IMG/VR virus record: IMGVR_UViG_2563366824_000004 | Reading direction: 5' to 3' (one strand) | Origin: a virus | Lineage: Duplodnaviria > Heunggongvirae > Uroviricota > Caudoviricetes | DNA length: 37,471 nucleotides | Part shown: piece by piece, positions 4,233-11,705 of the stretch | Layout: every line of letters begins with the position of its first letter | Position numbering within the stretch: position 1 is the first letter of the stretch | Translations under genes and position numbers: made by a program | Notes under the pieces: model-generated | What the model saw: the letters and a program-made list of their open reading frames with translations, nothing else | Databases searched by the model: none | What the model was told of the DNA's origin: nothing

Positions 4233-5086
4233 GCACCATCCTGAAATGGGCGGGAAATAAAACCGCCATTATGCCAGAACTGAAAAAATACCTTCCTGCT
4301 GGCCCGCGACTGGTTGAACCTTTCGCGGGTTCCTGTGCTGTGATGATGGAAACGGATTATCCCAGCTATCTGGTTGCGGATATTAATCCTGATTTAATCA
4401 ACCTCTATAAAAAGGTTGCCGCTGATTGTGAATCGTTTATATCTCGCGCCAGAGTTTTATTTGAGATCGCAAACAGGGAGGTGGCTTATTACAACATAAG
4501 GCAGGAGTTTAACTGCTCAACTGAAATTACTGATTTCATGAAAGCGGTATATTTCCTGTATCTTAATCGTCACGGTTACCGTGGTTTATGTCGCTATAAC
4601 AAGAGCGGGCATTTCAACATCCCCTACGGTAATTATAAAAATCCGTATTTCCCTGAAAAAGAACTTCGCACATTTGCAGAAAAAGCCCAGCGAGCAACGT
4701 TTATCTGCGCCAGCTTTGATGAAACGCTGGCGATGTTGAAGGCGGGAGATGTGGTGTATTGCGATCCGCCGTATGACGGTACGTTTTCCGGCTATCACAC
4801 TGATGGTTTCACTGAAGATGACCAGTATCACCTGGCATCCGTTCTTGAACATCGGTCATCAGAAGGACATCCAGTCATTGTTTCTAACAGTGACACATCC
4901 CTGATCCGTTCGCTGTATCGCAATTTTACTCACCACTATATCAAGGTAAAACGCAGCATCGGTGTGGCAGCTGGCGAGGGTAAATCAGCAACAGAAATCA
5001 TTGCTGTTTCCGGGCCGCGCTGCTGGATGGGATTTGATTATTCGCGTGGCGTGGATAGTTCTGCCGTGTACGGAGTACGTGCATGA
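4229..5086 (+). CDS. dam: DNA adenine methyltransferase (Dam-like, N6-adenine, probably GATC)
   Basis: N-terminus [23 protein letters not shown]...EPFAGSCAV (AdoMet-binding motif) and catalytic DPPY ([10 protein letters not shown]). ATG with GGAGGTG upstream; the ORF-track start at 4169 is upstream. Confidence 0.9.
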
Positions 5087-7497
5087 GTCATGCCGATATG
5101 AACAACTGCTGCGGCTTTAACGAGGCTGCCGCAGCATTCTCATGGAACAGCCCGAAAAAGGCCATTAACCCTTATCTGGACCCGGCGGAAGTTGCGCCGG
5201 TTTCTACGCTTTCAAACCTGATCACTCTGTACGCTGCCGATAACGAGCAGGAACAGTTGCGCCGCGAGGCACTGAGTGATCAGGTCTGGGAGCGTTATTT
5301 CTTTAATGAATCCCGTGATCCTGTCCAACGCGAAATGGAGCAGGATAAGCTCATTAGCCGGGCAAAGATGGCGCATGAGCAGCAGCGTTTTAATCCGGAC
5401 ATGGTCATTCTGGCCGACGTCAACGCCCAGCCTTCCCATATCAGCAAGCCGCTGATGCAACGTATTGAATATTTCAGCAGCCTGGGCAGGCCAAAGGCTT
5501 ATTCCCGCTATTTGCGTGAGACGATTAAGCCATGTCTGGAACGACTGGAGCATGTACGCGACAGCCAGCTATCTGCATCTTTTCGTTTTATGGCAAGCCA
5601 TGAAGGGCTGGACGGTCTGCTGATCCTGCCTGAAATGAGTCAGGATCAGGTGAAACGCCTGTCTACCCTTGTCGCTGCGCATATGAGCATGTGTCTTGAT
5701 GCCGCTTGTGGTGATTTGTACGCCTCCGATGATGTTAAGCCAGAAGAAATCCGCAAGACATGGGAAAAGGTGGCTGCAGAAACCCTGCGACTGGATGTCA
5801 TACCGCCTGCGTTTGAGCAACTCCGCCGGAAAAGAAACCGCCGCAAACCTGTGCCCTATGAACTCATTCCGGGTTCGCTGGCGCGTATGCTGTGCGCCGA
5901 CTGGTGGTATCGGAAATTATGGAAGATGCGTTGCGAATGGCGGGAAGAGCAGTTGCGTGCTGTCTGCCTGGTCAGCAAAAAAGCATCTCCCTATGTCAGC
6001 TATGAAGCCGTGATGCATAAACGTGAGCAGCGCCGTAAGTCGCTGGAGTTTTTCCGTTCTCATGAACTGGTGAACGAAGACGGCGACACGCTGAACATGG
6101 AGGATGTGGTAAACGCCAGCAGCAGCAACCCGGCGCATCGCCGCAATGAGATGATGGCCTGTGTTAAAGGCCTGGAGCTTATCGCGGAAATGCGTGGTGA
6201 CTGCGCCGTTTTCTACACCATCACCTGTCCGTCACGTTTCCATTCCACGCTAAATAACGGCAGGCCAAACCCGACCTGGACCAACGCGACAGTAAGACAA
6301 AGCAGCGATTATCTGGTCGGCATGTTTGCTGCATTTCGTAAGGCTATGCACAAAGCCGGGTTGCGCTGGTATGGCGTGCGGGTGGCTGAGCCGCATCATG
6401 ACGGCACAGTTCACTGGCACCTGTTGTGTTTCATGCGTAAAAAAGACCGCCGCGCCATTACTGCATTGTTGCGTAAGTTTGCCATCCGTGAAGACCGCGA
6501 GGAGCTGGGCAATAACACGGGGCCACGCTTTAAGTCTGAGCTGATAAACCCGCGCAAAGGAACGCCGACAAGCTACATTGCGAAATATATCAGTAAGAAT
6601 ATTGACGGGCGTGGTCTGGCTGGCGAGATCAGTAAGGAAACGGGTAAATCCCTGCGTGATAACGCTGAATACGTTAATGCCTGGGCGTCTCTGCATCGTG
6701 TTCAGCAATTCCGCTTCTTTGGCATTCCGGGGCGTCAGGCTTACCGTGAACTGCGATTGCTGGCTGGTCAGGCGGCAAGGCAACAGGGTGACAAAAAAGC
6801 AGGTGCGCCGGTACTGGATAACCCGCGCCTTGATGCCATCCTGGCTGCTGCTGATGCTGGTTGTTTTGCCACCTACATCATGAAGCAGGGCGGCGTACTG
6901 GTTTCCCGCAAATATCACCTCATCAGAACCGCTTATGAAATCAACGAAGAGCCAACCGCCTATGGCGATCACGGTATTCGTATTTATGGCATCTGGTCAC
7001 CCATTGCAGAGGGCAAGATCTGCACTCATGCAGTGAAGTGGAAAATGGTTCGTAAGGCCGTTGACGTTCAGGAGGCGGCAGCCGACCAGGGCGCTTGCGC
7101 CCCTTGGACTCGTGGCAATAACTGTCCCCTTGCTGAAAATTTGAACCAACAAGGGAAAGACAAATCAGCTGATGGGGACTCCAGAACGGATATTACCCGT
7201 ATGAATGACAAGGAGTTGCACGATTACCTGCACAGTATGAGCAAAAAAGATCGCCGGGAACTGGCAGCAAGGTTACGCCTGGTGAAACCGAAACGGCGTA
7301 AAGACTACAAACAGCGAATTACAGACCATCAGCGACAGCAGCTTGTCTATGAATTGAAGTCCAGAGGATTTGATGGCAGCGAGAAAGAGGTCGAGTTGCT
7401 CCTTCGCGGTGGCAGTATTCCGTCAGGAGCAGGCCTGCGTATCTTCTATCGGAACCAGCGTCTGCAGGAGGATGATAAGTGGCGGAACATGTATTAA
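5083..7497 (+). CDS. A: Replication initiation protein gpA (rolling-circle endonuclease)
   Basis: 804 aa; HxH metal motif (TVHWHLL) and the tyrosine pair region [13 protein letters not shown] typical of P2 A-family initiators; located after the early operon. Confidence 0.9.
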
Positions 7498-7591
7498 TTA
7501 CGCTGATTAACAATTCGTGCTCTTAATAATACCAGGCATATCAGGCTGATGAACGTAAAAAAACGTTTTACATCAGTAAGATTATTATATA

Positions 7592-7607
7592 CTGTAAATA
7601 TAAACAG
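7592..7607 (+). promoter_or_regulatory. LexA (SOS) box CTGT-N8-ACAG
   Basis: Sequence tACTGTAAATATAAACAGtg, 44 bp upstream of the ATG at 7651, matches the E. coli LexA consensus CTGT-(AT-rich)8-ACAG. Confidence 0.6.
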
Positions 7608-7650
7608 TGGTTATGTATACAGTATTGCTTGTGGTGTCATAGGAGGAAAA

Positions 7651-7839
7651 ATGCAGGACTATTTTTTGGAGTCTTTGAAGCTCCAGCGCATTGATTTTTT
7701 TCTTAAGCTTGTAGCGGCTAGTGAGTGTAGTGATGAAGAGAAGGGGCTGGCTTTGCAGTGGGTTTCTGAACTAACAGATGAACTCATGGCAAAAATCAGA
7801 ACCCACGAATACAACCGCTCAATGGATGTCATCAGTTGA
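7651..7839 (+). CDS. SOS-regulated small protein (63 aa), possible Tum-like antirepressor component
   Basis: ATG at 7651 with AGGAGG upstream, downstream of the LexA box. The longer ORF-track start at 7549 lies upstream of the operator and is rejected. Function inferred from context only. Confidence 0.5.
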   Translation: MQDYFLESLKLQRIDFFLKLVAASECSDEEKGLALQWVSELTDELMAKIRTHEYNRSMDVIS

Positions 7840-7849
7840 GGTGACTTTT

Positions 7850-8083
7850 ATGCGCATTGAAATAATGATCGATAAAGAGCAGAAGATTAGCCAGTCTATC
7901 CTGGACGCCCTTGAATCCGAGCTTTACCGCAATCTGCGCCCCCTGTATCCAAAAACGGTAATTCGTATCCGCAAAGGTAGCTCTAACGGTGTGGAACTGA
8001 CCGGACTGCAACTGGACGAAGAAAGAAAACAAGTGATGAAAATTATGCAGAAGGTGTGGGAAGACGACAGCTGGCTGCATTAG
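7850..8083 (+). CDS. DinI-family protein (77 aa)
   Basis: MRIEIMIDKEQKISQSILDALESELYRNLRPLYP...EERKQVMKIMQKVWEDDSWLH aligns along its length with E. coli DinI as I recall it (MRIEVTIAK...AIDALAGEL...KEDKQRISEILQETWESADDWF). GAGGTG RBS. Confidence 0.8.
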   Translation: MRIEIMIDKEQKISQSILDALESELYRNLRPLYPKTVIRIRKGSSNGVELTGLQLDEERKQVMKIMQKVWEDDSWLH

Positions 8084-8211
8084 AGAACGTTGCGGATGAT
8101 AAAACTAGCTTTTACCATCTGCAAGGCTGAACAACGATTGTAGCGAGGTGTTAGGTGGTTCAAAAGTAAAGCGGTTATTTTGCCCGTAAAAGTGAACCAC
8201 CTGTATCTTGA

Positions 8212-8952
8212 TCAGTTTTCTTTGAATTTTTCACTTAATCGTTTCGTCAATACTTCGACAGATTCTTTGCGACCGGAGAACAAGTCATTGACGACGTACT
8301 CCATAATCTCAAAAGCATCCTCAATGTCTTTGACTTTTACTTCATCGTAGGTATGGCTTCCGGCATTTCCTAAAAATTTAATTGCCATAAGAGGTCTTGA
8401 AAACGATCCGTATAATTCAGGTAGCATCCCTAAACGGTGGTGTAGAGTTATGCGTTTGCCATTATCATTACGTTCAGCTACATCCATAGCGGTTAGCATT
8501 CTTTCAACTGAAATTCGAATTAGGTTTGCTGCTGCGCCAGGCTGTATTAGGAAAATGGAAAATGAGGCTTCAAGCGGTTCGGTAATTTCTTCTGGGCATT
8601 TTTCAGGTATTTCGAAAGGATGCAGTGATGGGTAAAAGGTGAAAGGTCTGTGCCATTGATAGTACTCAATATCATTTCTTTCTTCATCCCAACCTTGTTC
8701 CCATCCACTCTTACCAGTACAGGCCACAACTTCACCACATTGCATTCTTGAACAGCGGGCCATGCAACTGAAAATAGATGAATCCATTTCTAGTTCAAAC
8801 CAATCTTCACTGCGGAATTTTCGGGTATCATGTGTGTCATACGAGACGAAACTTTCTTTAATGATCTGTAGGGTTTTCTGATTGCAGTTAGGGCAGGGCC
8901 ACTCAACCTGCATATCGTGGAAAAACGCACCAGAGAGCTTGTGCACAGTCAT
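8212..8952 (-). CDS. Hypothetical cargo protein (246 aa) with N-terminal Cys-rich putative Zn-ribbon; candidate phage-exclusion gene
   Basis: Leftward AT-rich ORF at the position occupied by tin/old in P2. CPNC...C...C..C cysteine clusters; C-terminal alpha-helical region with a GNAGSH motif. Confidence 0.7.
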   Translation of the reverse strand: MTVHKLSGAFFHDMQVEWPCPNCNQKTLQIIKESFVSYDTHDTRKFRSEDWFELEMDSSIFSCMARCSRMQCGEVVACTGKSGWEQGWDEERNDIEYYQWHRPFTFYPSLHPFEIPEKCPEEITEPLEASFSIFLIQPGAAANLIRISVERMLTAMDVAERNDNGKRITLHHRLGMLPELYGSFSRPLMAIKFLGNAGSHTYDEVKVKDIEDAFEIMEYVVNDLFSGRKESVEVLTKRLSEKFKEN

Positions 8953-9152
8953 TCTTTGTGTTCCTCATTTTTATGATTGGTAGGGATTGTATCTTCATAC
9001 ACGATTACAGTTGCATTAAAGATAAGCCATAGCAAGCTACTGGAAAAGAGACGAAACAGTTGGGCATATCAGATGTTTTTTCTTAAGGTAAGTTGTTGTG
9101 CATGCCTATACTGCATGAGATTGCATGATCGTTTGAGGATCGTTATTGCTAA

Positions 9153-9177
9153 GGCCCACCAGAACTGGCGGGCTTTT
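9153..9177 (+). terminator. Candidate intrinsic terminator (imperfect GC stem followed by TTTT)
   Basis: GCCCACCAG-AA-CTGGCGGGC followed by TTTTG; would terminate rightward transcription just before the candidate cos site. Confidence 0.35.
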
Positions 9178-9222
9178 GCGTAGAGCATGCAGGTGCATGA
9201 AAACAACTACATAAAGCGGGCA

Positions 9223-9241
9223 GGCGTGGCGGGGATACGAG
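9223..9241. other. Candidate cos (cohesive-end) site
   Basis: GGCGTGGCGGGGATACGAG: the first 13 nt match the 19-nt cohesive end of 186/P2 as I remember it (GGCG(T/A)GGCGGGGAAAGCA..); located between A and Q as in P2-family genomes. Recalled from memory, not verified. Confidence 0.35.
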
Positions 9242-9356
9242 CGCGCGCTGGTTAATTTATATGAGAACAATCTCATATAAATATTCGAGACAAGTTGCAA
9301 AAAAACGCGGAGCATTATATGTTTAGTAGCAAATTCTGAACGTTGAGAATATTAAA

Positions 9357-10625
9357 ATGGAAATTTTTGATACGAATGATATCTTTGGGCTCTCAAGAGA
9401 TTTGCCACTTAATTACATTGAAAGACCTGATGTTGATTTCAAACTTAAACAGGAATTACAAGCAAAGAAACATATTGTTATTTACGGCAGTTCAAAGCAG
9501 GGTAAGACTTGCGTAAGAAAACACTGTATTAATTCTGATGATTATATTTTGGTGCAGTGTTCGAATCGTTCTGATGTATCTGAATTGAATGCAAGTATTT
9601 TAAAAAGAGCTGGATTCGAAATAACTCAGTCTACCAAGAAAGGTATTACGGGGAAAAATAAAATAATCGCATCAATAAAAACTTCTATTTTGGGTTTTGT
9701 GGCGAGTGCCGGAGGCGAGATCGAAGATACGAAATCTCATGAACAAGTAACCGCGCCTTTAGAAATTGATGTTGATGATGTTAATGATGTTATAGCGGCT
9801 TTAAAATCTATAAATTTCAAGAAGATTATCGTTCTTGAGGATTTTCATTATATGCCTTTCGAAACTCAAAGAGATTTTTCGATCGCATTAAAAGCCTTTC
9901 ATGAAACATCAAGCATTATTTTTGTAATTGTTGGAGTTTGGCTAGAAGATAATCGGCTCATTGTTTACAATGGTGACTTAACTGGCAGGATTATTTCTGT
10001 TAACGCAGACAAATGGCAAGATTCTGAACTGGAGATGGCAATTGATAAAGGAGGTTTACTCCTTAACATTGATTTTGATCCAACTTTCAAAGCAGATGTA
10101 GTAACACACTGTCTCAATAGTATTTATTTAGTGCAAGAAGCATGTAGGCGTGCGTGTATTGAATGCGGAATATCAGAGACTCAGCAAACAAAAAGAACTA
10201 TTGGAGCTGGTTTGGATGGAAAGGATATCATTGCAAAAATTGTTAATGACCAATCGGCTCGTTACAATTCTTTCCTTATTAATTTTTCAGATGGATTTCA
10301 AGATACTGAACTTCAAATGCATAAATGGATTTTATATCCTGTCCTTTCATCAACCATTAGTGAACTTGAATTAGGTTTGAAATTTAAAGATATAAGGGCA
10401 ATATTACAAAGTGTACATCCAAGAGGGGAGAAGTTAAACCTGGGTAATGTTACTCAGTCGTTACAATCAACGGCGTCTTTGCAAATAAAGAAAAATATAA
10501 TGCCTATTATTTTGGATTATGACCAAACAAATAGGAAACTGAATGTTGTTGATAAAGGCTTCCTAATATGGTTGCAACATCAAGATATCAAAGATCTAAA
10601 GGATGATTTGGAGTTGCCAAATTAA
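9357..10625 (+). CDS. P-loop NTPase (422 aa), hypothetical cargo; candidate defence or abortive-infection ATPase
   Basis: Walker A GSSKQGKT (residues 44-51) and Walker B-like IIVLEDFH; C-terminal roughly 200 aa without a motif I recognise; strongly AT-rich; lies between the candidate cos and portal gene Q. Confidence 0.75.
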   Translation: MEIFDTNDIFGLSRDLPLNYIERPDVDFKLKQELQAKKHIVIYGSSKQGKTCVRKHCINSDDYILVQCSNRSDVSELNASILKRAGFEITQSTKKGITGKNKIIASIKTSILGFVASAGGEIEDTKSHEQVTAPLEIDVDDVNDVIAALKSINFKKIIVLEDFHYMPFETQRDFSIALKAFHETSSIIFVIVGVWLEDNRLIVYNGDLTGRIISVNADKWQDSELEMAIDKGGLLLNIDFDPTFKADVVTHCLNSIYLVQEACRRACIECGISETQQTKRTIGAGLDGKDIIAKIVNDQSARYNSFLINFSDGFQDTELQMHKWILYPVLSSTISELELGLKFKDIRAILQSVHPRGEKLNLGNVTQSLQSTASLQIKKNIMPIILDYDQTNRKLNVVDKGFLIWLQHQDIKDLKDDLELPN

Positions 10626-10642
10626 TTCATGTCTTTATTATA

Positions 10643-10673
10643 GATAATGGCGCCTATGTAGGCGCCCATTATC
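10643..10673. terminator. Hairpin between the convergent NTPase and Q genes (possible bidirectional terminator)
   Basis: GATAATGGCGCC-TATGTA-GGCGCCCATTATC near-perfect inverted repeat immediately after both stop codons. Confidence 0.4.
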
Positions 10674-11705
10674 TTAGAATTCAAGTGTATACGGTTTGAA
10701 TTGGATTATATTCTCATTAGACCAACTATTTAATCCTTTTATTCTTTCCTGTAATGGTATTAGCTCATTCCTCACAAACACACAGCTAGCCTTTTCCACA
10801 TCCCCAAATCCTCCAACATTATTAGGTATAATCCCCATCATTTGCGGTGGTACGCGGTGCGCAGCCATCATGTCATCGCGGCTGACATTTTTGATATTCA
10901 GAAACTCATCCTTCGCCGCAACTTCTGACAGAGGAATGATCTGAAGCCCATCCTTTTTGCCATTAGGTGAGTACATAAACAGGTTGCGGAAATTGCCTGG
11001 ACCTTTGGCGCTTTTCATCGCGTTGCGGAGGTTGTTCACATCCTCCTGGTTCTGCGCCGCATCGGTCATGTACATGATGAAGCCTGCATGACTGCCGTTA
11101 ATGTAATACTTGCGGCGGAACAGCGTGGCGGACTCGTTGAGCAAAGCGGATGGGATGGCAGAAAGATAGCCGGGCAGGCCGTAGATCTCCTGATTAATAT
11201 CCGGTTCCATCAGATGAAAAATGCTGCCTTTCGTGAACTGATACGGCTGGGTTGTCATACCGTATTGCATAAACCAGTAGGTATCCAGGTCTAATCCGCG
11301 TCGGGTGTATTTTGCAAGCGCAGGCTCAAGAGCGATAACTTCACCGAATCGGTTCGTGCGTTTCTCCAGGTAGGCGTTACCAAATACCAGATAGTCCTGC
11401 ACAAAACGCGAAAAAGCCTGCTGGCTGAGCAGCGGATGAGGGATATAGGTACTGGTCAGAATGTTGCACTTTACTGCAATCGGGGAACTGTGATGCACGG
11501 CGGCGCGGAAGGTGCGCGCCAGTCCGTCAAAGCTGACGGGCGGCTCATACCAACGGTCCATCTGTACGCATTCCACATAATCCAGCAGTTCTCGGCGGTC
11601 CAGAACAGGAACGGGATCGCCGAAGCTGAATGCTTCGGCTGTAGTTTGACTTTTAAGCTGGATCTGTTTCGTCGCCGCAGCGCGGTTCTTCTTACTCTTT
11701 CCCAT
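10674..11705 (-). CDS. Q: Portal protein gpQ
   Basis: 343-aa leftward ORF directly upstream-adjacent to the terminase ATPase; its ATG overlaps the P stop (ATGA); P2 Q-P arrangement. Confidence 0.85.
   Translation of the reverse strand: MGKSKKNRAAATKQIQLKSQTTAEAFSFGDPVPVLDRRELLDYVECVQMDRWYEPPVSFDGLARTFRAAVHHSSPIAVKCNILTSTYIPHPLLSQQAFSRFVQDYLVFGNAYLEKRTNRFGEVIALEPALAKYTRRGLDLDTYWFMQYGMTTQPYQFTKGSIFHLMEPDINQEIYGLPGYLSAIPSALLNESATLFRRKYYINGSHAGFIMYMTDAAQNQEDVNNLRNAMKSAKGPGNFRNLFMYSPNGKKDGLQIIPLSEVAAKDEFLNIKNVSRDDMMAAHRVPPQMMGIIPNNVGGFGDVEKASCVFVRNELIPLQERIKGLNSWSNENIIQFKPYTLEF

Follow-up and report, generated by a model that had tools for sequence, protein, structure and literature searches.

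The window analysed here is the whole 37,471-nt stretch of IMG/VR virus record IMGVR_UViG_2563366824_000004, and all coordinates are window positions. It is a P2-family prophage of Escherichia coli of the Fels-2/186 type. Its early region follows the layout of phage 186, with integrase, CI, CII, small genes, a Dam-type methylase, and the replication endonuclease gpA (5083-7497). Directly to the right of gpA lies a small SOS module that occupies the 150-nt gap after gpA and the next two small genes. It comprises a promoter region with two overlapping LexA boxes, the gene tumA for a predicted antirepressor, and the gene tumB for a DinI-family protein. An earlier note on this DNA had placed a LexA-controlled two-gene module of the 186 type, ending in a DinI homologue, at 7580-8083. 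The elements within that span were recovered on the plus strand, and the map position directly right of gene A matches the annotated 186 record; the span left out the -35 hexamer at 7567-7572. The region 7567-8083 is very probably the SOS induction operon of this prophage, in which TumA would inactivate the CI repressor and TumB would have an accessory part. A module of this kind is already known as the split tum operon of the Fels-2/PsP3 type.

LexA sites were scored with a weight matrix derived from ~25 E. coli sites, and the absolute scores are approximate. The training sites span 12.6-27.4 bits, with a heterology index (HI) of 2.0-12.3. As null distribution the best score per shuffle was taken for 200 shuffles (median 11.2 bits, maximum 21.2 bits). 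LexA box 1, TACTGTAAATATAAACAGTG, lies at 7590-7609 on the plus strand. This 20-mer scored 24.3 bits with an HI of ~4.0, which is the top score of the window, above all 200 shuffles, and within the range of the E. coli training sites for both measures. Its 16-bp core, CTGTAAATATAAACAG (7592-7607), is the sole exact CTGT-N8-ACAG in the 37.5 kb. The left arm of box 1, TACTGT (7590-7595, plus strand), would serve as the -10 hexamer by analogy with the 186 promoter p95. It is separated by 17 nt from the hexamer TTTACA (7567-7572, plus strand), which was read from the sequence as the probable counterpart of the p95 -35. In the 186 record, p95 has a -35 of TTCACA, a spacer of 18 nt, a -10 of TACTGT, and a LexA site that begins at the -10.

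Conservation of these elements was followed in an IMG/VR scan that returned 593 confirmed relatives. Eighty loci were kept, which together with Fels-2 and the window made 82. Each position of the -35 hexamer varied in at most one of the 82 loci. The sequence of box 1 was unchanged in 68, and the box sat 61 nt upstream of tumA in 81. Its score was at least 17.7 bits everywhere except in locus L004, in which the same box lies ~2 kb upstream of tumA (8031 versus 10001). This gap may represent an insertion that uncouples induction. In 10 more distant P2-family phages (SEN8, ST437-OXA245phi4.1, MLG42, ESSI2_ev015, ESSI-2, ENT90, YenM_324, YenM_201.16, 186, and PsP3), a strong LexA box of another sequence (21.6-28.9 bits) was found just upstream of a TumA-type gene. 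The LexA operator that the earlier note had described, and the matrix scoring it had suggested as a check, were thus both borne out by the unique exact match, the best score of the window, and the conservation upstream of tumA.

When one mismatch was allowed, CTGT-N8-ACAG was found 15 times in the window with 12.8 expected, which is no commoner than chance, and the intergenic region is AT-rich. Both would be expected of a chance palindrome with no regulatory role. However, the exact match is unique and outscores every shuffle, and 81 loci have it at a constant distance from the -35, the -10, and tumA. In distant relatives the corresponding boxes differ in sequence and are just as strong, and the site resembles experimentally studied colicin operators. 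A chance origin is extremely unlikely. The sequence argues for box 1 as a LexA operator that overlaps the core promoter, and binding of LexA is predicted.

The account of the operator in the earlier note held for box 1 and missed a second, overlapping box. LexA box 2, CAGTGGTTATGTATACAGTA, lies at 7605-7624 on the plus strand (core 7607-7622). It scored 15.6 bits, the third-best LexA site in the window and the 95th percentile of the shuffle maxima. Its core reads GTGG-N8-ACAG and has G7607 in common with the core of box 1. Across the relatives the arms GTGG and ACAG are conserved, and the central spacer varies. Fels-2 carries the same double operator, whereas 186 and PsP3 show a single LexA box. 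When plasmids were searched with the operator region, the matches fell on small mobilizable plasmids, with 82-92% identity across 35-43 nt. Three of the matches were examined. Two are located immediately upstream of the genes for colicin N (cna) and pesticin (pst) and are oriented like them, and the third lies upstream of an unnamed open reading frame (ORF) on a similar plasmid. Both boxes were in register in the alignment, and the second box of one plasmid was identical. The colicin and pesticin promoters have two overlapping SOS boxes of nearly the same sequence (ACTGT-N8-CAGTGG-N8-ACAGTAT), but the genes that they drive, on small plasmids, encode toxins and lysis functions, and neither their -35 region nor their leader is related to that of the window. 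Colicin double operators are reported to bind two LexA dimers (PMC2994835). By analogy, the double operator probably leads to cooperative LexA repression and the tumA promoter is probably repressed very tightly, in which case induction would need sustained damage.

The gene tumA (7651-7839, plus strand, stop codon 7837-7839) is preceded by the Shine-Dalgarno sequence AGGAGG (7641-7646, plus strand), 4 nt before the ATG. The ORF and its strong ribosome-binding site had been recognized previously, with a length of 63 amino acids; the product has 62, and the figure of 63 holds for the codons including the stop. A 96-aa ORF from the ATG at 7549 was rejected as a real gene; it would enclose its own promoter and operator. 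Longer forms of tumA are annotated elsewhere, as coding sequence 8896-9189 of ST437-OXA245phi4.1 (L090) and as 96-aa clusters that match window positions 7549-7839. These are probably start-codon mis-annotations, because the coding sequence would include the promoter and the LexA operator.

TumA is 98% identical to STM2728 of Fels-2 and 100% identical in all 80 IMG/VR loci kept. Searches of Pfam and NCBIfam returned no family for it. Among the phrogs it belongs to phrog_698 (E 3.6e-38) and also matches phrog_8554 and phrog_1993. The first 70 residues of 186 Tum match the same three families (phrog_1993, phrog_8554, and, at E 6.7e-6, phrog_698), and PsP3 TumA is phrog_1993. An alignment of the small ORF with 186 Tum, proposed in the earlier note, was made at the profile level with hhalign, with 32 homologues of the window TumA on one side and five 186-type N-terminal sequences on the other. 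It gave 95% probability and an E value of 3.9e-8 over residues 1-42 of both. TumA and the Tum N terminus have a common pattern of a hydrophobic helix, a turn usually with Cys, and an A-L-x-W/L-hydrophobic-x-E motif. The AlphaFold2 model of TumA is a two-helix hairpin with helices at 2-23 and 28-61 and a mean pLDDT of 90. A Foldseek search of the PDB with this model found generic helical hairpins only, none at E ≤0.001. Because profile methods link TumA to the N terminus of Tum, its identity as a distant true homologue of that part of Tum is supported. The small ORF had earlier been left as either an antirepressor or a divergent replacement; homology at the profile level speaks for the former, and the replacement can be dropped.

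The gene tumB (7850-8083, plus strand, stop codon 8081-8083) encodes a DinI-family protein of 77 amino acids, as had been claimed. TumB matched Pfam DinI PF06183 with an E value of 1.3e-22 and 80.4 bits (cutoff 24.2) over all 63 profile positions (1-63). Residues 71-145 of 186 Tum, which are exactly the annotated truncated product Tum95.5, have 41% identity with TumB; the value is 77% for TumB of PsP3 and 99% for the DinI-family protein of Fels-2 (STM2726.1). The solved structure of E. coli DinI, 1GHH, was matched at E 3.6e-6, and the acidic C-terminal helix KVWEDDSW of TumB aligns with ETWESADDW of 1GHH (W-E-x-D-(x)-W motif). TumB fell below the cutoff of the NCBIfam DinI equivalog NF007893 (42 versus 111 bits). 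It is a phage paralogue and not an orthologue of host dinI.

In Fels-2 and PsP3, as in the window, gene A is followed by a LexA box, a small TumA, and a separate DinI-like TumB. The PsP3 record describes tumA as 'similar to 5' end 186 tum; UV induction of prophage', and tumB follows it. PsP3 differs from the window in its single box, in a TumA of the other subfamily (phrog_1993, ~20% identity), and in having tumA and tumB in one frame split by a stop codon, whereas the window genes are in different frames. The p95-tum region of 186 has the TACTGT -10 under its LexA site, a 186-type CI, and the same map position, and the N- and C-terminal parts of Tum are homologous to TumA and TumB, respectively. 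Unlike the window, 186 encodes one fused Tum of 146 amino acids, the DinI part of which is also made alone from internal starts, and orf97 is next in the operon, where the window has variable cargo. In the literature Tum is described as resembling an antirepressor fused to DinI, and the tum region of Fels-2 and PSP3 as split in two (PMC3121763). The upstream gene of PSP3 is reported to carry the antirepressor activity (PMC3121763, which cites a personal communication in Bunny et al. 2002). For Fels-2, exposure to the mutagen MX changed the expression of the operon STM2726-STM2727-STM2728, and STM2727 rose 5.5-, 11.1-, and 14.8-fold, among the strongest responses of the LexA regulon (PMC2225428). 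The dinI-gfoA/gftA-irsA operons of the Salmonella Gifsy prophages, and likewise the AntC locus of N15, provide LexA-controlled small antirepressors against a non-cleavable repressor, and the Gifsy antirepressors are co-transcribed with a DinI homologue (PMC3121763). These systems differ from the window in having dinI first, in reversed order, and in belonging to lambdoid phages with a repressor of a different family.

Compared with 186, the reading frame of the window is interrupted. Only 10 nt separate tumA from tumB, and the two genes differ in frame, as would be expected if the split of tum were a disabling mutation and the prophage no longer SOS-inducible. Disruption of such modules does occur, as the ~2 kb between operator and tumA in L004 shows. 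However, each of the two ORFs has its own ribosome-binding site, and the split form is a conserved state, with TumA identical throughout the 80 loci kept of the 593 relatives. A query that contains the module matched 1261 of 5426 complete E. coli genomes (~23%). In PsP3, which is split likewise, the annotation gives tumA as the route of UV induction, and the Fels-2 copy is induced by damage (PMC2225428). That the operon is a decayed remnant is therefore very unlikely. Window positions 7400-10700 are 100% identical to a stretch in E. coli DE17 and in other avian and human isolates.

The immunity repressor of the window is encoded by cI on the minus strand (1449-2105). By Pfam it is of the 186 type and matches Phage_CI_repr PF07022 (E 3e-31) and Phage_CI_C PF16452 (E 5e-29). 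A match to the S24 peptidase stayed below the Pfam threshold. A lambda-like self-cleaving CI was rejected on these grounds. In 186, SOS derepresses the LexA-regulated p95, Tum inhibits CI by sequestering it, and repression is re-established once the signal decays (PMC7708051). From this analogy CI is the presumed target of TumA.

The pairing of TumA with CI was examined across loci and phages. Among the IMG/VR loci, 41 distinct CI proteins accompany the identical TumA. The N-terminal DNA-binding domains of the 41 have a median pairwise identity of 76% and carry an almost invariant segment, SKST..RY.RD.FP..W.IQCALETG, whereas the C-terminal domains have a median identity of 34% and a minimum of 22%. 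Across 11 phages, TumA similarity correlated with that of the CI N-terminal domain (Spearman 0.71, Mantel p 4e-4) and was uncorrelated with that of the C-terminal domain (0.11). Between 186 and PsP3, gpA is 91% identical, the TumA cores are 32% identical, and the CI N-terminal domains are 39% identical. On this comparative basis, TumA most likely contacts the conserved N-terminal DNA-binding domain of CI. In several of the CI variants (L025, L044, L020, L040, and L079), the frame upstream of the DNA-binding domain repeats part of the domain end, for example as METGVSVEWLAFG... and MANRYARDTFPADWVIICSIETGASIDWLASG...; these partial copies look like scars of recombination within cI.

Several observations weigh against the assignment as a whole or in part. 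A strict sigma-70 consensus scan of 7300-9400 found no promoter. The putative -10, TACTGT, is weak and has 3/6 consensus matches, which is why the strict scan missed the tum promoter; its equivalence to 186 p95 is therefore proposed from analogy and conservation. Scores from the LexA matrix are, as stated, approximate in absolute terms. Pairwise BLASTP of TumA gave no alignment with either 186 Tum or PsP3 TumA, and the homology with Tum rests on profiles over ~42 residues. Linkage and phylogeny confound the covariation between TumA and the N-terminal domain of CI. This covariation is indecisive because this domain is physically linked to the conserved operator region, because TumA similarity also correlates with that of gpA (0.61, leaving a partial correlation of 0.52 between TumA and the CI N-terminal domain), and because ESSI2_ev015 is discordant. 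In the Gifsy prophages, non-polar deletions of the dinI homologue had no significant effect on induction (PMC3121763), so the contribution of TumB to induction may be small.

The Gifsy result also fits an operon that mainly modulates the host, in which TumB would adjust RecA or mutagenesis, TumA would have another SOS role, and the prophage would be induced by other means. TumB does belong to the DinI family, prophage loci under LexA control commonly carry homologues of DinI, and TumA has neither a curated family nor a tested function under its own name. Against such a role for TumA stand its homology to the antirepressor part of Tum and the antirepressor activity reported for the upstream gene of PSP3 (PMC3121763). 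ESSI-2, ESSI2_ev015, ENT90, YenM_324, and YenM_201.16 have the LexA box and a TumA-like gene and no annotated DinI-like gene, which points to TumA as the core function and TumB as the accessory. Moreover, the CI match lies below the S24 domain threshold, and another induction route is therefore needed. We consider a mainly host-directed function improbable.

An SOS induction operon with TumA as antirepressor would work as follows. In the lysogen, LexA on the double operator (7590-7609 and 7605-7624) would cover the -10 and the start region and keep the promoter shut. Upon DNA damage, RecA would become active and LexA would cleave itself, so that the tum promoter would fire and two proteins would be made. 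TumA would then bind the 186-type CI and block its binding to the CI operators, and inactivation of CI would free the lytic promoter for Apl/excisionase, replication, and late genes. TumB, the free-standing counterpart of the C-terminal half of Tum, would most likely tune the activity of the RecA filament in an accessory role. SOS inducibility of the prophage, as the earlier note had expected, is plausible from the 186-type, non-S24 CI and from the MX-induced, near-identical operon of Fels-2.

A second strong LexA box, CACTGTATGTATAACCAGTG, lies at 1083-1102 on the minus strand; its score of 22.1 bits ranks second in the window. It takes up the 17-nt spacer of a promoter-like TTGACA/GAAAAT (1106-1078, minus strand), and the start codon of int (~1052) follows ~30 nt downstream. 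All related loci that share this int family carry a LexA box here, in at least eight sequence versions of 19-26 bits, whereas loci with an unrelated int have none at the int-promoter spot. This pattern suggests SOS-controlled expression of the integrase. A literature search for LexA-controlled int in P2-like phages found no paper. Between cI and int, which are adjacent in 186, a small ORF with a signal-peptide-like start is located at ~1245-1433 on the minus strand. It looks like inserted cargo, because similarity to related phages ends a little past the int promoter.

These features could be combined into a two-point, colicin-style SOS circuit, in which the double operator would gate tumA so that it responds to sustained damage only, a separate int promoter under LexA repression would provide integrase simultaneously, and the invariant TumA would neutralise many CI proteins through their DNA-binding domain and allow cross-induction. 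We offer this wider circuit tentatively, as possible rather than probable.

The remaining features lie at the end of tumA and downstream of tumB. A weak hairpin of 6 pairs followed by TTTTAT (7828-7845, plus strand) covers the stop codon of tumA together with the ribosome-binding site of tumB and is the only terminator-like match of a consensus scan; any part in translational coupling or attenuation is speculative. Directly 3' of tumB, at the border of a variable cargo region, lies a 13-bp stem-loop (8088-8126, plus strand). A classic terminator was ruled out here, as the element has no U-tract. A second stable stem-loop (8144-8210) likewise falls in the interval from tumB to the convergent cargo gene. 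Folded as RNA, 8081-8215 had an energy of -41.6 kcal/mol and a z score of -4.4, and an Rfam scan of 7300-8400 gave no match. In related loci the counterpart of 8088-8126 has a different sequence, for which an equivalent hairpin is possible by eye, followed by a shared GAACAACGA motif.

Similarity to the relatives ends at the tumB stop codon, and 38 different downstream sequences were found among the 82 loci. In the window this slot (8084-10625) holds two genes, one (8212-8952, minus strand) for a DUF4145 protein that weakly matches the defence gene PD-T7-4 (E 1.6e-5) and one for a 422-aa ATPase (9357-10625) with a strong match to the candidate defence family PDC-S59 (E 4.8e-72). The region is probably a hotspot for anti-phage cargo. 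In several loci the cargo 3' of tumB has a strong LexA box of its own, TGCTGGACAT(A/G)CATACAGTA, with 19.6-22.8 bits (L006 at 7398, L014 at 6699, L019 at 9069, and L075 at 10272).

The double colicin-type operator, the LexA box at the int promoter, and the pattern of TumA with the CI domains add modestly to a known module and leave the basic picture unchanged. The module also exposes a gap in annotation. Neither Pfam nor NCBIfam has a model for TumA, though its role has been in the literature since 2002, and it is labelled "hypothetical protein" in the RefSeq genomes listed. For E. coli, the analysis predicts that a common type of prophage is induced by DNA-damaging antibiotics via an antirepressor and not via cleavage of its repressor. 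Induction by this route would be reversible and could act in trans on related prophages. If the wider circuit holds true, one damaged cell could cross-induce all co-resident Fels-2-type prophages, whatever the C-terminal domain of their CI.

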